Source: a virus. From it: a DNA stretch of 49,227 nucleotides. This document shows positions 1 through 49,227 of the stretch, one piece after another. The notes beneath the pieces were generated by a model that saw only the letters and a program-made list of their open reading frames with translations, made no database searches and was not told where the DNA came from. Both the position numbers and the translations under genes were made by a program. Every line of letters starts with the position of its first letter. The first letter of the stretch is position 1. The stretch is from positions 1 through 49,227 of IMG/VR virus record IMGVR_UViG_3300045988_084225. One strand, given 5' to 3'.

Positions 1-50
1 ACCTGCTTTGGGAGCAGGGGGTCGTGGGTTCGAATCCCGTCGCCCCGACA
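1..50 (+). tRNA. Partial tRNA: 3' portion only (long variable arm, T-arm, acceptor 3' strand); candidate attP core, not a functional tRNA gene
   Basis: Variable-arm hairpin CCTGC/GCAGG, T-arm GTGGG-TTCGAAT-CCCGT, then CGCCCCG-A. No matching 5' acceptor, D-arm or anticodon arm lies upstream of the second copy at 49087. Confidence 0.55.
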
Positions 51-59
51 ACGATTAGA

Positions 60-106
60 AACCGCTGATAATCAACAATTTCTGTTGGTTGTTGGCGGTT
101 CTTTTT
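60..106 (+). terminator. Long hairpin plus T-run directly after the tRNA fragment (tRNA-gene terminator carried in the att region)
   Basis: AACCGC (60..65) pairs with GCGGTT (95..100). The inner arms 66..77/83..94 pair with G-U wobbles. CTTTTT follows. Confidence 0.5.
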
Positions 107-163
107 ATGACCTTTTATGAGAAAAGAGGGCGCGTTTTTTGCCACATTCTGCAATAAATTAGC

Positions 164-3126: not shown

Positions 3127-3268
3127 AGCGAGTATAGGCGGTTAAATGGATAGACCGCAGGAAAATAGCACAACTCGAAGAAATAGACTTGATGAGTGGG
3201 ATTGTCAGTTGATTCGGGTTTTTCGTGAAAGCCTAGGACATTAGAAGGTTCGATTCCTTCACTCGCTT
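3127..3268 (+). ncRNA. Candidate tRNA-like structured element (acceptor-like helix plus T-arm); not a canonical tRNA
   Basis: AGCGAGT (3127..3133) pairs with ACTCGCT (3261..3267). T-arm GAAGG-TTCGATT-CCTTC at 3244..3260. D-arm-like GCGG/CCGC at 3138..3158. It lies in a 254-bp ORF-free gap. Confidence 0.25.
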
Positions 3269-3296
3269 CAATATAAACAATTAAAAATACAAAGCA

Positions 3297-4187: not shown

Positions 4188-5063
4188 ATGGAAACACAGC
4201 AAAACAATGTGGTAGCACTTACACAACAAGAGCAAGAGATTAAAATTATACAACTCAAGCGTCAAGCCGAGTTTGACCTCACACCGATTGGTCAGCAAGT
4301 TAAGCAGTTCGAAGCTACACAACGCATAGCAATGATGTACGCGATGTCAAACTTCATACCAGACAGCTACAAATACAGAAATGGGCAACCACTTGACCAG
4401 AATGTTGTATTAGCAAACTGCACAATTGCATTGGAGATGGCAACGCGAATGCAAGCTAATCCACTTATGGTAATGCAGAATCTCTACATTGTTCACGGAC
4501 AACCAGCATTCAGCAGCAAATTCCTTATAGCTTGTATCAATGCAAGCAAGCGATTCTCTCCGCTCCGCTATGAGTTCAAGGGCGAAGAAGGTACTGACGA
4601 ATATGCTTGTCGTGCGATAGCATACGAAGCAAACGACACGAAGCACAAAGAACCTCTAGAAGGTGATTGGATAAGCATTTGCATGGCCAAAGCTGAAGGC
4701 TGGATGAGTAAGAAAGGCTCAAAATGGTCTACCATGCCCAATCAAATGCTTCGATATCGTGCTGCTGCATTTTGGCAGCGTACCTACTGCCCCGAAATCA
4801 GCATGGGATTGCTTACCGCAGAGGAAGCGCAAGACGCATTCGCACAATCTTACGAGGAAGTTAAGCAACCATCGGCAACAACTGCAATCCCTACGGATGA
4901 ACTTGGTAGACCTTCGCTCGCAAGCGTTGCAGCGCAAGCAGCACAAGATGTAGTTGTCGAAGCTGATAATGCGCAAGAGCAAAAAGAAGAACAAGCGCAA
5001 GAAGAAGCAACTGCAAAAGAAGAATCTGAGCAAGAACCGAAGAAACGTCCATCACTTCTTTAA
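4188..5063 (+). CDS. recT: RecT-family single-strand annealing protein
   Basis: 291 aa. NCTIALEMATRMQANPLMVMQNLYIVHGQPAF and MPNQMLRYRAAAFWQR resemble RecT. An acidic C-terminal tail is present, and the gene is paired with the downstream exonuclease. Confidence 0.7.
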   Translation: METQQNNVVALTQQEQEIKIIQLKRQAEFDLTPIGQQVKQFEATQRIAMMYAMSNFIPDSYKYRNGQPLDQNVVLANCTIALEMATRMQANPLMVMQNLYIVHGQPAFSSKFLIACINASKRFSPLRYEFKGEEGTDEYACRAIAYEANDTKHKEPLEGDWISICMAKAEGWMSKKGSKWSTMPNQMLRYRAAAFWQRTYCPEISMGLLTAEEAQDAFAQSYEEVKQPSATTAIPTDELGRPSLASVAAQAAQDVVVEADNAQEQKEEQAQEEATAKEESEQEPKKRPSLL

Positions 5064-5074
5064 AATATAATATT

Positions 5075-5911
5075 ATGTACGACAATCACAACCAAAACAA
5101 TCTTGAATGGTTTCGCGCTCGTTTGGGCAACATTACTGGTAGTGCTGTAGGTAACATTATGGGCACTCCGCGTAGCAAGAGCGACAAGTGGACTGCAACG
5201 GCTCTAAACTATCTTAATCAAGTTGCATTTGAGCGCACAATGAACCCTATAGTTGTAAATAATGATGAATTGTTCGCTCAATACATAACCCTTACGGACG
5301 TGAAGAGCAAAGCAATTCAGTGGGGACACCAAATGGAAGGCGAAGCAGCACACTTATTCGCAAGAGAATACCACAAGTACTTTGCTAAGAATGGTCAGGA
5401 ATTTACGCTTGACCTTGAAGAACCTTCGTCAGTAAGATGTATAGACTTGCCACACTTTGCAAGCAGCCCCGACCGCATGTTCTACGACCCAGAAACTGGG
5501 GAAGAATGCTGTGTTGAAATTAAATGTCCGCAAGCAGCTTCATTCGCTAAGTTTGTTAATAATGTATTCACTAATAACACAAAGGGAGAAATGCTTGAGG
5601 GGTTAAAGAAGACTGATTCAAACTACTATTGGCAATGCTACGCGCACATGCTTGCTACTGGCGCAAGTAAGACATACTTTGTAATCTACAACCCATTCCA
5701 AATCAACCCGATGTTCATTCTCGAGATAGAACGTGACGAAGATATTCTAAACGAAATGAGAGAGAAGATTACGGCTGCTGATGAGTATATCACAATGCTT
5801 GTAGCAGGTTTGTGGGCACGGCAAAAAGAAATCCGTATAACGCTAAAACGACAGCAAAGCTTGTTAACAAAATTAACCAACAAAATTGACAAGATAAAAC
5901 AACCCAAATAA
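5075..5911 (+). CDS. YqaJ-like (lambda Exo-type PD-(D/E)XK) recombination exonuclease
   Basis: N-terminal EWFRARLGNITGSAVGNIMG. SPDRMF and VEIKCP match the D...ExK motif. Confidence 0.75.
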   Translation: MYDNHNQNNLEWFRARLGNITGSAVGNIMGTPRSKSDKWTATALNYLNQVAFERTMNPIVVNNDELFAQYITLTDVKSKAIQWGHQMEGEAAHLFAREYHKYFAKNGQEFTLDLEEPSSVRCIDLPHFASSPDRMFYDPETGEECCVEIKCPQAASFAKFVNNVFTNNTKGEMLEGLKKTDSNYYWQCYAHMLATGASKTYFVIYNPFQINPMFILEIERDEDILNEMREKITAADEYITMLVAGLWARQKEIRITLKRQQSLLTKLTNKIDKIKQPK

Positions 5912-11132: not shown

Positions 11133-12098
11133 ATGAAACAAAAATATAGATTGACAGACGAAACCATCGAATATGGTGGTGTAACGTTATATAGAATCGA
11201 AGCTCTTAGAGAATTTGGTAATGTGAGAGCTGGTGATAAAGGAGGATTTGTGCAGTCAGAACTTAACCTTTCGCAAGAAGGAGATTGCTGGATTTATGGC
11301 AAAGCTGCGGTCTATGACAAAGCTAGGGTCTTTGGCGAAGCTAGGGTCTTTGGCGATGTAGAGGTCTATGGCAAAGCTAGGGTCTTTGACAAAGCAGAGG
11401 TCTTTAACGAAGCTAGGGTCTTTGGCGAAGCTAGGGTCTTTGGCGAAGCTAGGGTCTTTGACGAAGCTAGGGTCTTTGACGATGTAGAGGTCTATGGCAA
11501 AGCTAGGGTCTTTGACAAAGCAGAGGTCTTTAACGAAGCTAGGGTCTTTGGCGAAGCTAGGGTCTTTGGCGAAGCTAGGGTCTTTGACGAAGCTAGGGTC
11601 TTTGACGAAGCTAGGGTCTTTGGCGATGTAGAGGTCTATGGCAAAGCTAGGGTCTTTGACAAAGCAGAGGTCTTTAACGAAGCTAGGGTCTTTGGCGAAG
11701 CTAGGGTCTTTGACAAAGCAGAGGTCTATGACGAAGCTAGGGTCTTTGGCGAAGCTATGGTCTTTGACAAAGCTAGGGTCTTTGGCGAAGCTAGGGTCTA
11801 TGGTGATGCCATGATAGCTGACATAGCAAAAGTTTGCGGCGATGTAAGAATCTATGGAAACGCAGAAATCTTTGGCGATGCTATAATTAAATCAATACGA
11901 GATTATATAGTATTTAAGAATTGGTGGAGTAGTGGGCGCTATTTTACTTGGACTAGAAACAACAACATGTGGAAAGTTGGTTGTTTTTATGGTACTGGCG
12001 AAGAACTCATAACCAAAGCATTTTTGGATAGCAGAGAGAGTGGAATCGCATATAGACGAGTAGTAAGATATGTTAATAGTATTCTTACAAACAAATAA
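11133..12098 (+). CDS. Hexapeptide-repeat (left-handed beta-helix-like) protein
   Basis: 321 aa. About 30 consecutive six-residue units of type A-R-V-F-[GD]-[EK], flanked by non-repetitive N- and C-terminal domains. Confidence 0.75.
   Translation: MKQKYRLTDETIEYGGVTLYRIEALREFGNVRAGDKGGFVQSELNLSQEGDCWIYGKAAVYDKARVFGEARVFGDVEVYGKARVFDKAEVFNEARVFGEARVFGEARVFDEARVFDDVEVYGKARVFDKAEVFNEARVFGEARVFGEARVFDEARVFDEARVFGDVEVYGKARVFDKAEVFNEARVFGEARVFDKAEVYDEARVFGEAMVFDKARVFGEARVYGDAMIADIAKVCGDVRIYGNAEIFGDAIIKSIRDYIVFKNWWSSGRYFTWTRNNNMWKVGCFYGTGEELITKAFLDSRESGIAYRRVVRYVNSILTNK
11298..11890 (+). repeat. In-frame 18-bp tandem repeat array with higher-order units
   Basis: GCTAGGGTCT occurs 19 times. The block GATGTAGAGGTCTATGGC recurs at 11355, 11481 and 11625 (spacings 126 and 144 bp). 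Confidence 0.9.
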
Positions 12099-19149: not shown

Positions 19150-20616
19150 ATGAAACCAATCAATGAGATCATGGCATTGGGCGACCCAATGCAAATATAC
19201 ACGCTGTTAACCTCACGTAAGCAGGGATTCAAAAAATCTCTTGATGAGACAGAATCAGAATACGACCCAATGAGACACGTTGTCTATGATACGACCAAAC
19301 GAAAGAAAAAGAAAATCAAAACCAATACTGGCAAGCGCGACCAAGAAGGGAATCCAATCTACAAAGAAAAGTATATTGACCGTTGCCGCATAGCTGTTCC
19401 TGTACAGCGTCTTCTCTGCGAACGTGATGTAGGTTTTCTCTTATCCAATCCTGTGAAATATAATATTGATGGCAATGTAGATAAACAAGCACAAGACTTA
19501 TTCGATAGTGTAATAAATACATTCAAAGCAAACAAAATAAACTACTTCGATAAGCGTCTTGCAGGAAAACTATTTCGTTGTTGTGAATGTGCTGAACTTT
19601 GGTACTTCATCCCTAGTGAAGATGATAGTGAACCTGAGATGCGTGTAATGCTTCTTTCGCCCCTGCATGGAGATATACTTTATCCACATTTCGATGATTA
19701 CAGACGAATGGATGGTTTTGCACGTAAATACTGCATCAAGGATGAACTCGGCAATTCAACGATTCATTTTGATGTGTATACACGGACGATGATATATAGA
19801 TACGCGAACGATGGTGCAAACCTTACCTTGCTTGACGCGAAACCTCATGGATTCGATAGAATACCTGTGGTCTATTATCGCCAAGAAGAAACCGAATGGG
19901 AATCCGTACAACCAGTGATTGAGCGACTTGAAGAACTTCTATCAAATTGGGGAGATGTAAACGATTATTTCGGTGCGCCTACATACTTCTTCAAGGGTAA
20001 GATGAAAGGATTTGCAGAAAAAGGCGAAGTAGGCAGAATATACCAAGGTGAGGGAGAGGGTGCAGATATGAAAGTCGTATCATGGAACTCTGCCCCCGAT
20101 AGTATGCGGCAAGAAATGGCCAATCTTACGAATATCATCTTCTCATACTCTCAAACTCCCGACATTTCATTTGAGAATATGAAGACACTCGGGAATAACA
20201 CAAGTGGAGCAGCAATCAGACTAATGTTTACTGACCCACATCTCAAAGCAGAGAAGAAAGAAGAATTGTTCGGTGAAATGTTTACTCGAAGATTTAATAT
20301 CGTGAAAAGTGGTATCGCAGCAAGCGTTCTCGCAACACCCAAGCGAATCGCTGATGCGCTGAACGTTATTCCCATATTCTCACCCTACATTCCTAAGAAC
20401 GAGATGGAGACGCTGCAGCTCATCAACCTTTCCACGCAGAACAAAGCTACCATGTCGCAGGAGGATGGTGTACGGCTGAATCCGCTTGTAAGCAATCCCG
20501 AACAAACATTGAAGCAGCTAAAGGAGGATGAATCGTCCGAAGCTAAGATGAACATTTTTGCGAGCGCAATCAGTGGTGCTGCAGCACAGAACGAAGAAGA
20601 GAAGAATGAAGAATGA
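19150..20616 (+). CDS. Portal protein
   Basis: About 488 aa from the ATG at 19150. The call rests on its position after TerL and its size. The ORF-track TTG start at 19111 overlaps the TerL end. Confidence 0.75.
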   Translation: MKPINEIMALGDPMQIYTLLTSRKQGFKKSLDETESEYDPMRHVVYDTTKRKKKKIKTNTGKRDQEGNPIYKEKYIDRCRIAVPVQRLLCERDVGFLLSNPVKYNIDGNVDKQAQDLFDSVINTFKANKINYFDKRLAGKLFRCCECAELWYFIPSEDDSEPEMRVMLLSPLHGDILYPHFDDYRRMDGFARKYCIKDELGNSTIHFDVYTRTMIYRYANDGANLTLLDAKPHGFDRIPVVYYRQEETEWESVQPVIERLEELLSNWGDVNDYFGAPTYFFKGKMKGFAEKGEVGRIYQGEGEGADMKVVSWNSAPDSMRQEMANLTNIIFSYSQTPDISFENMKTLGNNTSGAAIRLMFTDPHLKAEKKEELFGEMFTRRFNIVKSGIAASVLATPKRIADALNVIPIFSPYIPKNEMETLQLINLSTQNKATMSQEDGVRLNPLVSNPEQTLKQLKEDESSEAKMNIFASAISGAAAQNEEEKNEE

Positions 20617-22211
20617 CAATCGAAGAACAGATAACACGACTATTATTATACGCTTCGTCTGATGTAAACAAGTTGTACGACAAGTTAATCAAGGAATTAT
20701 CCAAGGTTACAGCCACATCTACAACGAGAGTTACACCAGATGAATTATACACCATTGCCAAGGCTTGCACCCCTTCTGAAAAGGAGAAGGTACAAGCCTT
20801 ATTGGATAAGTACACAAAAGCGTTGCAAGCAGTCATTCAGCAAGGGATAACGCTTGCAGTTCTTCATTCTGCAAATATTCAGCAGAAGGCATTGGCAGCA
20901 TATACACGCTGGGAAGGGAAAGAGGTAGAACAATGGCGCAAAGACACCGCCAATGCTTTTATTCGCAGCCGAATGAATCGTGATGGAGGGCTTAATCTTT
21001 TTGATAGAGTGTGGAACTATACGCAGCAAACAAAGGGTGAGTTTGAGTTAGCTGTTTCGCAGGTGCTAGAACAAGGTATCGGAAAAGGAATATCCGCAGA
21101 ATCTCTTGGCAGACAAGTGCGTCAATTCCTCAATAATCCCGATATGATGTACAGACGCTACCACATGAAGAAACTCATGTCGGATGGCACGAAGAAAGAT
21201 GTCGTTGAGTGGCGCAGACGAGTGGTAGATGAGCAAGGTAAGGTTCACTTCGTTAAGGAGGACTTAGCTAAGGTCGGCACTGGCGTTTATCGTTCCTCAC
21301 GTCAGAATGCTTTGCGTCTAACAATTACTGAAACGAATATGGCTTACAACTTTGCTAATTGCGAAAGATGGAGCAGCGAGCCTTACGTACTTGGTATTCG
21401 TATTCGTTTGTCGGGTAATCACCCAGAGGAGGATATATGCGATGAATTGGCAGGTGACTATCCGAAGGACTTCATGTTTCGTGGTTGGCATCCTCGCTGC
21501 AGATGTTCTATGTCCTCAATATTGATGGATAGAAATAGCGAGGAATGGAAGCATTTGCGCTCTCTGCCCGAGAATGAATACAAGGCTTACCAATCACCCA
21601 ACGCTGTAAAGAACGTTCCCGAGAAATTTAATAAATGGTGCGAGCGCAATGCGAAAAAGTTGGACTTGGCACGCGAGAGGGGGAAGCTGCCTTACTTCGT
21701 GAGGGATAATATGAAGGCTGTTGGGGATATTATAGGTTGGGAAGAAGTAAAATACACTTTAGGTAAAGGAACAATTACAATTCCTAAATACGTAAGCTCG
21801 TCAGATAATGACTACAAGAAACTGATACAAATAGCCGAACACTTTGCATTGAAAGGTTCAAACGTTATTCTTACACCTAAGATGAAACGTCCTCCAGAAT
21901 TTGAGTATTCAAAGTATTATAAATCTTTAATCGGCACTAAATATGAAGGTAAATGTCCAGATTTAAATATTGATGGAAAGTGGTATGAGCATGAGGGGTT
22001 TGTTACAGATAATCCGAAACGTGCTCTTAAAAATATGCTTAATGATGGATTAAAACAATCAAATCGCTTAGTGATTGATCAACCTAGGTTGACGGATAAT
22101 TACATCTTGCATAATATTATTGTTCGTCAGAAACAAGGTCAAGATATAGAAGAAGTTTGGTTAAGGACTGAAAAGGCAATACGTTTAATCTATAAAAAGC
22201 GAGAGAGTTAA
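20613..22211 (+). CDS. MuF-like head morphogenesis protein with a ~225-aa C-terminal extension
   Basis: MuF core ITETNMAYNFANCERW...WHPRCRC ends near residue 305 of 532. The distal part contains KCPDLNIDGKWYEHEGF. Confidence 0.8.
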   Translation: MTIEEQITRLLLYASSDVNKLYDKLIKELSKVTATSTTRVTPDELYTIAKACTPSEKEKVQALLDKYTKALQAVIQQGITLAVLHSANIQQKALAAYTRWEGKEVEQWRKDTANAFIRSRMNRDGGLNLFDRVWNYTQQTKGEFELAVSQVLEQGIGKGISAESLGRQVRQFLNNPDMMYRRYHMKKLMSDGTKKDVVEWRRRVVDEQGKVHFVKEDLAKVGTGVYRSSRQNALRLTITETNMAYNFANCERWSSEPYVLGIRIRLSGNHPEEDICDELAGDYPKDFMFRGWHPRCRCSMSSILMDRNSEEWKHLRSLPENEYKAYQSPNAVKNVPEKFNKWCERNAKKLDLARERGKLPYFVRDNMKAVGDIIGWEEVKYTLGKGTITIPKYVSSSDNDYKKLIQIAEHFALKGSNVILTPKMKRPPEFEYSKYYKSLIGTKYEGKCPDLNIDGKWYEHEGFVTDNPKRALKNMLNDGLKQSNRLVIDQPRLTDNYILHNIIVRQKQGQDIEEVWLRTEKAIRLIYKKRES

Positions 22212-22267
22212 AATACTAACTCTCCCGTGTCGAGGAATCGGTAGTCATTAGCTACAGAATCCTCATT

Positions 22268-22297
22268 GCAAAGGTATGGAATTTCGCCATACCTTGC
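22268..22297. terminator. Hairpin between convergent late and reverse-oriented genes
   Basis: AAGGTATGG (22271..22279) pairs with CCATACCTT (22287..22295). A second hairpin GAGAGTTA/TAACTCTC lies at 22203..22224. Confidence 0.5.
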
Positions 22298-22302
22298 AAA
22301 TT

Positions 22303-22545
22303 TTACACCTCAATTTTCCAAAAATAATATACACAACCAAAGTCGTCTTCAATAACATCTGGCTTCAAGTAAAGCGCTTTTTGGTTGCTGCTCACGAAGT
22401 ACAGAGCATCTTCAAATTGCCCTTTGAGCAGCTTCACAGAATCTTCATTTGTTTCAGCGTACAGAGCGAGGTCTTCGCCACAAGCTATTTCTTCGCTTCT
22501 AAGGTCTTTGCCTACCAACGTTTCAAGTAGTTCTATTGCTTTCAT
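22303..22545 (-). CDS. Small acidic hypothetical protein
   Basis: 80-aa ORF, last gene of the reverse-oriented operon. Confidence 0.6.
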   Translation of the reverse strand: MKAIELLETLVGKDLRSEEIACGEDLALYAETNEDSVKLLKGQFEDALYFVSSNQKALYLKPDVIEDDFGCVYYFWKIEV

Positions 22546-22550
22546 CTTGT

Positions 22551-22952
22551 TTAATCTATGAAGTCATTAAATGTTGTTACTTCTGTGCCATCATCATAGA
22601 AAGGCTTCTTGTCGCAAATGTAGCCTTTCCAAAAGCCATATTCGTAGATAAGGAACATGTGGTATCCAGCATTACGAAGAACCTTAAAGGCTGCTTTCAT
22701 TTCTTCTCCATTAAATCGGATATTATTGTCACTGTCAAATGCTTCGTGGTCGCCAAATCCGTAGGCCTTACCACTTTGTTTATTTACTCTAACGTATAGA
22801 GTTTTACCTCTGTATGCGCTTTGTCTTTCTGGGTGGAATATGCGCCAGACACAAGTGCTGAGAAACGCATCGCAAATGTATTGTACAACCTCTTGGCGTA
22901 CTTCCGTTGGCTGTACATAATCGTTCTTCGGAATGTTCACTGTTATTTCCAT
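22551..22952 (-). CDS. Hypothetical protein
   Basis: 133-aa ORF. Confidence 0.65.
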   Translation of the reverse strand: MEITVNIPKNDYVQPTEVRQEVVQYICDAFLSTCVWRIFHPERQSAYRGKTLYVRVNKQSGKAYGFGDHEAFDSDNNIRFNGEEMKAAFKVLRNAGYHMFLIYEYGFWKGYICDKKPFYDDGTEVTTFNDFID

Positions 22953-22964
22953 TGCGGTTTTAGA

Positions 22965-23528
22965 TTAAATTCGTGTGATTGTTTTTGCTGTTTCTTCTCC
23001 CCACAAATCCAATATTGTATTGTAGGCTTCCTTATCTCCGTCCCATGCGTACATACATTCATAGTTGTTGTACTCATAGAAGTAAACCTCTTGTGGATCG
23101 CAATTCTTTGGAATATCCTTGTCTCGCTGTATATAGAAATCGAAGAACGCGTCAAGGCTTTCTTTTGTACCGAATGCACCATTTTTGCACTGGCATATCT
23201 TGTCACCTTTGGAAATAAACCCAAGGTCTACAAGATGATTATAACCTTCGGCATATTGCTCATTGTTGAAGGCGAAGAATACTCCATACTTGTCGCAGTC
23301 GGGATGCGAATCCTTGGTGCGCTGATAGTACTTTATAGTTTGTGGATTAAGCATTATCACGCTGCCTTCTGTACAGAGCCAATCAACGAAGTAATTGAGC
23401 GTACCTTTGGTCGTTTTAACGCTCTTGATAGCGTTCGGATTGTCTCGCTTGGTTACTTCATAGCTCTTTGCGAATCTGTCGTTTAAACCACAACTTCTTG
23501 CGAAATAGTAATCTTTATTGTTGCTCAT
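22965..23528 (-). CDS. Hypothetical protein
   Basis: 187-aa ORF. Confidence 0.65.
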   Translation of the reverse strand: MSNNKDYYFARSCGLNDRFAKSYEVTKRDNPNAIKSVKTTKGTLNYFVDWLCTEGSVIMLNPQTIKYYQRTKDSHPDCDKYGVFFAFNNEQYAEGYNHLVDLGFISKGDKICQCKNGAFGTKESLDAFFDFYIQRDKDIPKNCDPQEVYFYEYNNYECMYAWDGDKEAYNTILDLWGEETAKTITRI

Positions 23529-24148
23529 GTTGTTTCGTTTTAGGGGTGGGGTAAAAAAGTGCGCTTAACGTTATCGCCCAACGAATCGTGACAGCAAATG
23601 CGAGGTGTACGTTTCGCTCCCTACTGGAGTAAGTCTGAATTTATGCACATGTGCAACTTTTCAGAGGAATATCCTTTTTCTCGGCATCTTAACGTTTAGC
23701 GTCAACGTGATGGTTTATTTAGCGTTCACTCCTCACAAGAACGAATTTGTAGCTTATCCAAATACAGCTTGCTACATATGAGCTGAATTTTTTTGTCAGG
23801 TGTTTTTTTCACCCCACGGTATGCCTGACCGCCCGCTGTTGTATACGGTTTTTCTCTACAATGGTACTTGGATTGTACCTACGGCTTTTTAGTTGTATTG
23901 CTCAACCCTTGTAACGATAAGGTGCGGTTACGTTGTCTCGGTTTTAACGTGTTATCTCACGGCTGATTAACACCACAGCTTTCGGATTTACTCTTGTCTG
24001 ATGTTTTAACGATTGTGCTTATCGACTTCTTTTCTCCACCAGTTTTGACTAGACCTGCGCAGGAAAGAATGCTAGAAAATTCGCTCTTACTAGGTTATAA
24101 CGTTATCTTTGTGAGTAAGGCGGAATCGAACTGCCCAAGCCACCAAGG
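23529..24148 (-). other. 620-bp ORF-free spacer inside the reverse-oriented operon (candidate large structured RNA, regulatory region or origin)
   Basis: There is no ORF of 60 aa or more in the sense direction and no internal minus-strand TAnnTTTG box. It contains palindromes, TTAACG and TTATC repeats, long-range complementarity and a T-arm-like motif at its 5' end. Confidence 0.5.
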
Positions 24149-24508
24149 TTACTCTCTTGCCCATTCTTCAAAGGCGTTTACAAGTTCTAATTTAATGAAG
24201 AGCATATCACCAGTACCATCTCTCCACCAATCTGAATAATGTGTAAGAAATTCTCCATAGATACCATCATAACAGCAGAGCTTTTTGTAAATCGCTCTAA
24301 ACATTGCCGAAATCTTTCTTCCGCTGAAGTGTCCTGCATATTTAGCATCATTCGTGCAATAACCATAGGCATGGTGTCCGTATAAGTTTCCGTCCTCATC
24401 AACGAAATCTACAAGGTCGCTGCCCCAAAATCCATAATTGATAGTATCTTTCAAGAGTTGTTTTTGTTCTTCTGTTAACTCCTTTACTAAGTTTTCGATT
24501 GTTTCCAT
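24149..24508 (-). CDS. Hypothetical protein, first gene of the reverse-oriented operon
   Basis: ATG at 24508 (METIENLVKELTEEQ...). The longer ORF-track start at 24592 would run through the promoter. Confidence 0.65.
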   Translation of the reverse strand: METIENLVKELTEEQKQLLKDTINYGFWGSDLVDFVDEDGNLYGHHAYGYCTNDAKYAGHFSGRKISAMFRAIYKKLCCYDGIYGEFLTHYSDWWRDGTGDMLFIKLELVNAFEEWARE

Positions 24509-24557
24509 TGTTGTTTTGTTTTTAAATTGTTTCTTACTTTCGTTCTTAACTCTGTTG

Positions 24558-24565
24558 CAAAGATA
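24558..24565 (-). promoter_or_regulatory. -7 box TATCTTTG of the reverse-oriented operon; same promoter/leader cassette as at 2787 and 48882
   Basis: The reverse complement reads TTGTTATATCTTTGCAACAGAGTTAAGAACGAAAGTAAGAAACAA. Confidence 0.6.
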
Positions 24566-24678
24566 TAACAAAATTATATTCCAACAAAACAAAAATATAA
24601 GAAAATTATAAGTTTAATATATTTTTATTTCTCATATTTGACGAAATATTTCTATATTCGCGTAAAACTCAATGAGTT

Positions 24679-25029
24679 ATGCGAGACTACAGAAATGAAC
24701 TCCTAAGCAAGTCCACATCAGCCGAGAAAGCAATGTGCAAAACATTGAATGCGATGAATATAAAATTCATTCGCCAATACCAAGTGAAGACCCCACGCAA
24801 GATGTTCTATCTAGACATATATATACCATCTCTAAGGCTTGCAATTGAAGTTGATGGTAAATACCATTACACAGATACACAAAAACGCTTAGACGCGAAC
24901 AGAAGCGCATGTATAAGAAGAATGGGAATACACGTTTTTAGGATAGATAATCCAATGGCACACAAGCCTTCAGCGGTAAAAAAACTGCTTGAAAGGTATT
25001 TAAAGCGAAAAAAAATAGCGACAACATGA
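24679..25029 (+). CDS. DUF559 / Vsr-like PD-(D/E)XK endonuclease-domain protein
   Basis: FYLDIY...LAIEVDGKYH...DANRSACIRRMGIHVFRI. Confidence 0.7.
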   Translation: MRDYRNELLSKSTSAEKAMCKTLNAMNIKFIRQYQVKTPRKMFYLDIYIPSLRLAIEVDGKYHYTDTQKRLDANRSACIRRMGIHVFRIDNPMAHKPSAVKKLLERYLKRKKIATT

Positions 25030-41239: not shown

Positions 41240-41325
41240 ATTGTTTTTGGATTACAAGCGTGAAGTGGTCAGTGGGCTGCTTTGCGCTTTTATGCTTTTA
41301 TTTTTTACTCCAAAAACAATCAAAA

Positions 41326-41625
41326 ATGAACGAATTAAAAGAAATTTATCATAGAGCCGTTGAAGCGGTTCTAAGTGCGAGTGGCCTTACACGTGGTCAA
41401 CTCGCTAATTGTCGTGCAGAAAAGTGCGTTATTGCTCGCGTGGTACTAGTGGATATTCTTGTGCAGATAGGCTTCACTGAATCAGATATAGTAGAGCTAA
41501 GCGGAATGAGTCAACAGAGGGTGAACTCGTTGAAGAATAGTGCTAGGCACAGGCTGCAAGGGCTAGCGGCACGGATAATGAGGGAGGAGGTTGTGCAGAA
41601 TTTGCAAAAAGAAATTACCTTATAA
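41326..41625 (+). CDS. Small HTH protein resembling DnaA domain IV
   Basis: ATG at 41326. RAEKCVIARVVLVDILVQIGFTESDIVELSGMSQQRVNSL. Confidence 0.45.
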   Translation: MNELKEIYHRAVEAVLSASGLTRGQLANCRAEKCVIARVVLVDILVQIGFTESDIVELSGMSQQRVNSLKNSARHRLQGLAARIMREEVVQNLQKEITL

Positions 41626-49086: not shown

Positions 49087-49136
49087 ACCTGCTTTGGGAG
49101 CAGGGGGTCGTGGGTTCGAATCCCGTCGCCCCGACA
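49087..49136 (+). tRNA. Second copy of the partial tRNA 3' portion (same sequence as 1..50)
   Basis: Part of the terminal repeat. The preceding 49040..49086 has no tRNA 5' half. Confidence 0.55.
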
Positions 49137-49227
49137 ACGATTAGAAACCGCTGATAATCAACAATTTCTGTTGGTTGTTGGCGGTTCTTTTTATGACCTT
49201 TTATGAGAAAAGAGGGCGCGTTTTTTG
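49087..49227. repeat. Direct terminal repeat copy 2 (identical to 1..141)
   Basis: 141/141 identity read directly. The window ends exactly at the repeat edge. Confidence 0.95.

Follow-up and report, generated by a model that had tools for sequence, protein, structure and literature searches.

tRNA-like structures act as processing or mimicry elements in several systems: the mascRNA of MALAT1, the tRNA-like domain of tmRNA, the bacterial Y-RNA YrlA and mitochondrial tRNA punctuation. In phages, PeSLs are mobile promoter/stem-loop cassettes that mediate gene shuffling among T4-type phages, and ATTGGGCACCCGTAA of Syn5 is the promoter of a single-subunit RNA polymerase. Large 'ornate' RNAs of bacteria and phages include ROOL, GOLLD, HEARO and raiA (Rfam; PMC5737381, PMC12286853). 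Frpo/ssi: single-stranded-DNA promoters located upstream of anti-defence genes in the leading regions of plasmids, Frpo being one long imperfect hairpin that rebuilds the −35 and −10 boxes (PMC11541004). The element described here is a non-coding module in a 620-nt spacer (23529-24148) of the IMG/VR virus record IMGVR_UViG_3300045988_084225. The window is the whole stretch analysed (49,227 nt). The module is composite and conserved, belongs to a phage accessory ('moron') operon and most likely acts as an RNA of the operon-sense strand (minus strand of the window), a reading held with somewhat less than even confidence.

Read in the operon sense, the module comprises a 46-nt tRNA-like minihelix (TLS; 24110..24155, minus strand), a 10-nt perfect palindrome ATAACGTTAT (24097..24106), a variable 5′ segment delimited by alignments (24007..24096, minus strand), a conserved non-coding core (23582..24006, minus strand) and a 22-nt box TTGGGCGATAACGTTAAGCGCA, usually preceded by G (23560..23581, minus strand), that ends 31 nt before the next ATG. 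Like the mascRNA/tmRNA/YrlA-type elements, the TLS has an acceptor-type stem stacked on a T-arm with the canonical GGTTCGAWTCC loop, has covarying stems and is found at the boundary between RNA segments. Unlike them, it is 46-50 nt long, lacks a D-arm and an anticodon arm, has a 13-16-nt connector and overlaps a stop codon; ARAGORN and Rfam are blind to it, and its processing is only a prediction. The whole module resembles ROOL, GOLLD, HEARO and raiA in being long, non-coding, phage-borne, rich in conserved hairpins and adjacent to a tRNA-like sequence. It differs from them in giving no covariance-model match at E≤10, in having no significant thermodynamic stability, in being an operon-embedded leader, in its very narrow distribution and in being interchangeable with short variants. 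It shares with Frpo/ssi a non-coding, orientation-specific nature, a size of a few hundred nucleotides and a position upstream of mobile-element accessory genes; one source gives its usual partner gene, p294, the name DUF932. Its longest inverted-repeat arms (13-17 nt), its DNA fold (z=−0.49) and its carrier, a tailed double-stranded-DNA phage, separate it from Frpo; membership of Frpo/ssi was rejected for want of a long inverted repeat and of a stable DNA fold.

The box is, like PeSLs, short, highly conserved and intergenic, precedes many unrelated exchanged genes and has breakpoints at its edge; its length (~23 nt) is typical of phage RNA-polymerase promoters, and it may resemble that of Syn5. 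Unlike PeSLs and Syn5-type promoters, it occurs in one copy per locus, with no phage RNA polymerase or sigma factor seen in the flanks; neither 50,697 cultured-phage records nor PLSDB plasmids contain it. The kinds of element involved are already known (structured leaders and non-coding RNAs, tRNA-like processing elements, conserved phage regulatory boxes). The core, the box and a miniature tRNA mimic placed in this way all fall outside described families.

A conserved non-coding module

A sequence-only reading of the window had described the spacer as free of genes and probably transcribed with the operon. Indeed, 23529-24148 contains no minus-strand open reading frame (ORF) of at least 30 amino acids (aa) and no minus-strand TAnnTTTG box (pattern scan), and it lies inside a minus-strand operon, with a canonical Bacteroidetes-type promoter upstream and no internal minus-strand terminator-like site. 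All six frames have stops (3-12 per frame). Between clade A (the window and its 99%-identical twin, L073) and clade B, 7-10 single-base indels were counted over 431 nt, and the substitutions show no triplet periodicity. The spacer is non-coding: the indel pattern and the stops in all frames rule out a pseudogene or a hidden small ORF. The core is 91% identical between the two clades; for p294 the figure is 84% overall and 55% at 100 fourfold-degenerate sites, and for p133, the last gene of the operon, it is 72% at 43 such sites. By these comparisons the core is under purifying selection and evolves several times more slowly than neighbouring neutral sites, which rules out a decaying remnant.

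A search with the DUF7659 protein, encoded by the gene that now follows the module, gave 59 related viral loci, just four of which contain spacer sequence: a 452-nt core (23555-24006), ~90% identical, in L002-L004 and a 28-nt piece in L001. Pattern scans and a neighbour-protein search enlarged the module set to ~25 related phage contigs; they also revealed a module in L151 and L157 that is full-length but more diverged, as well as short variants in L115, L117, L118 and L128. The modules fall into size classes of ~227, 308-327, 546-611 and 702 nt, all running from the TLS to the box. In every relative (~25 contigs) the core is directly upstream of the 294-aa ORF p294, a gene overlooked by the sequence-only reading; p294 is missing after the core in this window alone among module carriers. 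The spacer was not found in cultured-phage and plasmid databases, nor were the flanks of box-bearing loci. L157 (uncultured Prevotella sp. UMGS287 contig) carries two TLS-to-box modules, one 'empty' (1465-1690) and one full (4891-5439), each after a different 89-aa ORF; a tyrosine-recombinase gene is located ~1.2 kb downstream of the second.

The TLS was scored by a covariance model (63.8 bits, E=2.4e-13), which finds exactly one copy in the window; some phages have two, each after a different small gene, and at least six unrelated small genes precede the copies. Its layout in the window: acceptor-like stem AGAGTAA/TTACTCA, 13-nt connector, T-arm GGCAG-TTCGATT-CCGCC. The upstream TAA stop codon is overlapped by the element and lies within the 5′ strand of the acceptor stem. 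The T-arm-like motif (24119-24138) had been picked out by the earlier reading, and its pairing proves to be kept by compensatory substitutions. Across copies, the acceptor-like stem is 6-7 bp, the connector 13-16 nt, the T stem 5 bp and the loop TTCGA(T/A/C)T; the loop GGTTCGATTCC is invariant, and GGTTCGA(T/A/C)TCC is retained as the stems change. Pairing is maintained in fifteen distinct copies of differing sequence: T-stem pair 3 is G-C, C-G or T-A, and five acceptor pairs each occur as 2-3 standard pair types. The T stem has 5/5 pairs in 13 of these 15 copies and 4/5 in the window and L221 copies; the acceptor stem has 6/7 pairs in 14. The T-stem defect of the window copy is one A·C mismatch, which the twin does not have. 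In the 13-sequence alignment, 95.8% of TLS cells are paired (43-61% in slid controls), 7 of 11 pairs show double-sided changes and the covariation score is 0.576 (0.267 in shuffles; 0/500).

With a T-loop following the consensus GTTCRANYC, a 5-bp stem, a 6-7-bp terminal stem and maintained pairing, the element is, as judged from its sequence, a tRNA-like minihelix. It is not a canonical tRNA gene: only the acceptor-like stem and the T-arm are present, without a cloverleaf; ARAGORN calls no tRNA at 24110-24155 or in L001-L004, and Rfam calls none at 24110-24155. Among the loci searched (the last 112 box-search loci excluded), the covariance model finds the TLS solely in the Prevotella-type clade and not outside it; the TLS as a general feature of box-bearing phages was rejected accordingly. 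The palindrome just 3′ of it keeps its position and stays palindromic while its sequence varies by clade (CAAACGTTTG, CATACGTATG, CATGTACATG, CATATATATG, CTAACGTTAG); 3/3 tested pairs change on both sides.

The variable segment contains ATTCTTTCC, a degenerate copy of the TTCTTTGC box of relatives, and a ~28-nt clade-specific insert with one TTAACG/TTATC pair. The TTCTTTGC box may be an internal −7 promoter box. At the homologous place, relatives carry TTTCTTTG and the site 1 module of L157 carries TATCTTTG, with a perfect TATCTTTGCAAC −7 box. A full Bacteroidetes sigma-A promoter (TAnnTTTG, −33 TTTG) was not found within the spacer. An internal promoter is thus possible in relatives and appears degenerate in this window.

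The extent of the core is given by identity, constraint, indels, RNAalifold and pair counts. RNAalifold, run on 13 full modules, predicts many small hairpins. Compensatory changes are found in GUG..CAC (23949-23960; plus-strand coordinates here and below), CCUU..AAGG, which alternates with CCCA..UGGG (23907-23922), GGUAC..GUACC (23863-23879), CGGU..ACCG (23817-23831), GGGGUG..CACC (23799-23815) and UGUAGC..GCUACA (23748-23776). UGCAC..GUGCA (23644-23655) is among the invariant stems, its loop being variable. An internal box-like repeat, GCTAAACGTTAAGATGC, is located at ~23684-23700. Local hairpins have 98% of their cells paired, and 14 pairs are changed on both sides (6.9±1.7 in shuffles, 0/500; 0-3 in slid controls). 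Predicted long-range helices are invariant and hence carry no covariation signal. The T-loop reads correctly on the minus strand only, and the tested helices contain 150 G·U and 8 A·C cells, a count biased by the prediction of these helices on the minus strand; T-loop orientation and G·U excess together favour the operon-sense strand.

All the sequence features that the sequence-only reading had listed are present in the spacer, at the positions it gave or within 1-3 nt of them, among them the palindromes TGCACATGTGCA (23644), CCTGCGCAGG (24054) and ATAACGTTAT (24097), CTTACT/AGTAAG (24086/24114), GTCAGG/CCTGAC, GGTAC/GTACC and GTAAC/GTTAC. The comparison of homologous spacers that it had called for shows a core conserved across clades, with compensatory substitutions in several hairpins; its GGTAC/GTACC stem, for instance, reads GGTGC/GCACC elsewhere. 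Its long-range pairing fared less well. The 13-nt arm at 23546-23558 does pair with 23805-23817, but its 3′ arm falls in a junction that is unique to the window and missing from the twin, so the pseudoknot built on this pairing is not conserved. Only the clade of the window has CCTGCGCAGG, the TTAACG/TTATC pair at 24006/24019 and the first T of TTATCCAAA.

Membership of a known large-RNA family (GOLLD, ROOL, HEARO, raiA or another Rfam family), also suggested earlier, finds no support: Rfam cmscan of 22200-24800 gives nothing inside the spacer even at E≤10. On 16 related and box-bearing loci, Rfam returns tRNAs and one DUF805b match only. A type III toxin-antitoxin RNA, a retron msr-msd and a CRISPR-like array were rejected: no repeat families of meaningful length, no partner enzymes (PADLOC on the three operon proteins and p294). 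No intrinsic terminator was found on the minus strand of the spacer. The only terminator-like hairpin with a T-run in the spacer is on the plus strand (23765-23785), opposite in sense to the accessory operon; any late transcript that reads on from the portal and minor-head genes into those for scaffold and capsid would have to cross it. The minus-strand A-run matching its T-run is invariant in all clades.

The 22-nt box and the exchange of downstream genes

The box has a single match in the window at up to 3 mismatches (0 expected); it includes the TTAACG/TTATC pair nearest to the downstream gene, noted earlier as repeats and now found to be common to many unrelated phages. The pattern TTGGGCGATAAYNTNAAGCGCA matches at least 119 stretches of viral contigs and 116 of metagenome contigs, the samples being of gut, freshwater, marine, soil and wastewater origin. 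They represent 49-51 distinct sequence contexts, a handful of which resemble chance matches in coding sequence. In ~45 unrelated contexts from uncultured phages the box stands once per locus; even when five mismatches are allowed, 211 of 212 box-search loci have one copy only. Common layout: stop codon, a few to ~25 nt, box (nearly always with G before it), start codon 10-50 nt further on. An ORF starts ≤130 nt downstream in 244 of 269 loci, mostly at 10-50 nt; in some loci, a tRNA gene begins 3-4 nt after the box. The orientation is always toward the next gene or tRNA.

The first genes after the box encode ~50 unrelated proteins across contexts, with no common theme. A large freshwater family has a constant SSB-box-leader arrangement followed by about a dozen different first genes. 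On GC-rich, proteobacterial-type contigs, an intrinsic terminator and a covarying hairpin precede the box, with which a new unit begins, either a ~110-nt unit ending in a terminator or a gene with a Shine-Dalgarno sequence. The conserved ~110-nt unit after the box in L210, L275, L304 and L334 resembles a small RNA gene and has no Rfam match. Within the flanking DNA analysed, no protein family is shared by every box-bearing locus; only terminase and ParB-methylase recur, both being common siphovirus genes. Substrings of the box retrieve only unrelated primers from the searchable literature. Sigma-54, sigma-70, ECF and LacI-type operator sites were rejected because spacing and the variable centre do not fit (consensus sequences compared by eye). 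The distribution suggests that the box is a portable expression signal (promoter/operator or RNA-processing site) and a gene-exchange junction.

Such an exchange has left its trace in the window. The leader next to the box (23529..23559, minus strand) is a recombination junction unique to the window. In the twin, the gene order is core, p294, p133. Homology with the twin stops 5 nt past the box, and homology with the sequence upstream of DUF7659 in L001 starts 12 nt before the ATG; by these breakpoints, recombination at the box edge replaced p294 with DUF7659 in this genome. In L005-L029 and other DUF7659 loci, p294 adjoins DUF7659 in an order reversed relative to that of the relatives of the window, and is found ~34 nt downstream of DUF7659, without a long leader.

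Genome and neighbouring genes

The ends of the window (1-141 and 49087-49227) are identical over at least 120 nt (49087-49206), and their positions imply an overlap of ~141 nt; the terminal repeat indicates that the phage genome is complete and closes into a circle of ~49.1 kb. This repeat includes the 3′ half of a tRNA, beside an integrase gene (217-1458), and is probably attP. That tRNA fragment (1-48) is the sole match of the whole window to Rfam (cmscan, gathering thresholds). Portal, minor-head, terminase and ParB-methylase genes identify the virus as a tailed temperate phage. The host is probably a member of the Bacteroidota, most likely Prevotella, as suggested by the TAnnTTTG boxes, a related element in an uncultured Prevotella sp. 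genome and the NCBI name of a p294 homologue.

The accessory operon occupies a minus-strand island (22551-24597) inserted between plus-strand minor-head and scaffold genes. Bacteroidetes-type promoter boxes (24558..24597, minus strand: TAtcTTTG at 24558-24565 and two further TAnnTTTG matches by pattern scan) are predicted to drive it; an identical TATCTTTGCAAC motif heads the operon in relatives, e.g. L003. The first gene (24149..24507, minus strand; METIENLV..., ATG at 24507) encodes 119 aa and not the 147 aa of a TTG-initiated ORF given earlier, the remainder of which is promoter region; in tblastn against L001, matches start at about residue 29 of that ORF. The 119-aa protein has no convincing match in Pfam, PHROG or PADLOC. 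DUF7659 (22965..23528, minus strand) encodes 187 aa (Pfam PF24692, E=8e-10), and p133 (22551..22952, minus strand) encodes 133 aa with ~91% aa identity in relatives. DUF7659 is the sole match of the three operon proteins and p294 in Pfam, PHROGs, NCBIfam and PADLOC. The p294 sequence has no match in the PDB; its AlphaFold model (pLDDT 60.5) has none in the PDB by Foldseek at E≤0.001, and papers mentioning DUF932 give no function for it.

A DUF559/Vsr-like endonuclease gene (24679-25029, plus strand; PHROGs label homing endonuclease), divergent from the accessory operon, occupies the same place in each relative examined. The minor-head (SPP1 gp7-like) protein (20613-22211) has a PHROG match to 'Bxa ADP-ribosyl transferase' (residues 111-377) and a weak match to a CdiA_C toxin domain near its C terminus (residues 448-490). 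An ORF at 11133-12098 encodes a YdcK-type beta-solenoid repeat protein; the five TAGCTTTG copies inside it (11318-11775, minus strand; spacings 54, 126, 144 and 126 nt) are repeat DNA, not promoters. A phage-encoded tRNA-Thr (anticodon CGT) is found at 3191-3269.

Weighing of the readings

On the preferred reading, an operon-sense RNA, transcription would start at the promoter (24558-24597) and run through the 119-aa gene into the spacer. The first 46 nt would fold as a miniature tRNA made of an acceptor stem and a T-arm. The TLS would act as punctuation, or as a processing or stabilizing signal for RNase P, RNase Z or the CCA-adding enzyme, and would thereby separate the upstream message from the downstream RNA. 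The next ~450 nt, a chain of small hairpins, would form a long structured leader of the downstream gene or a non-coding RNA released for it. The terminal 22-nt box would be a promoter/operator or an RNA-processing site before variable genes or tRNAs. In relatives the module would serve p294; here it would serve DUF7659, after recombination just past the box.

Several observations weigh against this reading. An RNase P cut 5′ of the TLS would deprive the upstream gene of its stop codon, a difficulty for a simple punctuation model. A palindrome perfect to its centre is less like a hairpin than like a DNA site bound by a dimeric protein or a point of RNA-RNA dimerization. The internal TTCTTTGC box is degenerate in this window. 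RNAalifold gives nearly equal results for the two strands (−105.5 kcal/mol and 14 double changes vs −101.6 kcal/mol and 12), and single-sequence folds are not unusually stable (z −0.30 for the sense RNA, −0.87 for the antisense RNA, −0.49 for the DNA). The full core is known from only ~4 independent lineages, and its structure was derived from the alignment on which it was tested; the covariation statistics are suggestive, not conclusive. Finally, short (~250 nt) and 'empty' (~125 nt) variants precede the same p294 gene, which implies that the large core is dispensable for p294 expression in some phages.

The chief alternative, possible although rather unlikely, is a DNA-level regulatory or origin-like region. 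The box, the GATAAC..CGTTAA copies and the palindrome would then be protein sites (operator array, iterons or recombination hot-spot), and the hairpins would be incidental, or would function while the DNA is single-stranded. The four TTAACG and five TTATC copies noted earlier are present and strongly enriched relative to 2000 dinucleotide shuffles of the spacer (0.36 and 0.77 expected; 0/2000 and 2/2000 shuffles as high); palindromes of at least 10 nt number 3 (0.58 expected; 39/2000 as high) and are perfect through their centres. The exact conservation of a 22-mer across very different base compositions suggests recognition by a protein, a box-like repeat (12/22 matches) is found ~110 nt upstream of the box, gene-swap breakpoints fall at its 3′ edge and the folding energy is unremarkable. 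However, compensatory changes in at least seven small stems and an invariant T-loop have no obvious role in double-stranded DNA, and the box points the same way as the downstream gene in every case, including this genome, in which the island runs opposite to the rest. Long inverted repeats and conserved DnaA boxes are absent, no replication-initiator gene is found beside the module among identified genes, and box-bearing loci share no protein family. The replication origin proposed by the sequence-only reading is not supported. Its near-DnaA box, TTATCCAAA, is present at 23754 but is not conserved (relatives read CTATCCAAA), no long hairpin accompanies it, and the proposed binder (41260-41625), labelled 'DnaA-domain-IV-like', has no Pfam or PHROG match and no detectable DnaA domain. 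The repeats amount to one perfect box and degenerate copies, partly conserved, without clustered conserved DnaA boxes or iterons; none of the genes near the spacer scanned with Pfam and PHROG matches a replication-initiator family.

A free 'ornate' non-coding RNA like ROOL or GOLLD, released at the TLS, acting in trans and possibly multimeric through the palindrome, is unlikely. Its appeal lies in a phage-encoded segment of ~450-550 nt that directly adjoins a tRNA-like element, has many small conserved hairpins and includes a self-complementary 10-mer that could join two molecules by pairing; ROOL, GOLLD and OLE assemble into homo-oligomers of RNA alone (PMC12286853). Against it, there is no Rfam match and no defined 3′ end or terminator before the box, the distribution is restricted to one group of Prevotella-type phages, sister phages have much shorter bodies in place of the core, and the predicted long-range helices, being invariant, are without covariation support. 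Least probable of all is a non-autonomous mobile insertion or recombination scar in the box region, functionless and conserved in appearance through recent spread. It would account for presence or absence at one site (L001-type modules keep the TLS and the box without the core, and the L085-type module is the L001-type sequence plus the core) and for the 10-nt direct repeat GTTGGGCGAT at both ends of the inserted block, which is seen in L085-type loci only. Neutral hitch-hiking cannot, however, explain a core that diverges ~5 times more slowly than the synonymous sites of the adjacent gene. Conservation of the 5′ 'half-box' is poor in other clades, and what aligns with it in empty modules is unrelated sequence; terminal inverted repeats are lacking and the core is found at one kind of locus only.

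A bolder form of the RNA reading, doubtful at present, would make this the first phage 'tRNA-punctuated' operon: stop-codon tRNA mimics would recruit host tRNA maturation to excise a large RNA, and the box, as both signal and splice point for gene swapping, would be read by a conserved factor across phages of several environments and base compositions. If the operon-sense RNA reading is true, gut Prevotella-type phages carry a structured RNA family absent from Rfam, with a miniature tRNA mimic as gene punctuation, and host tRNA-processing enzymes would be linked to the control of phage accessory genes. The pattern of the box points to an undescribed expression signal and to a hot-spot of accessory-gene exchange.

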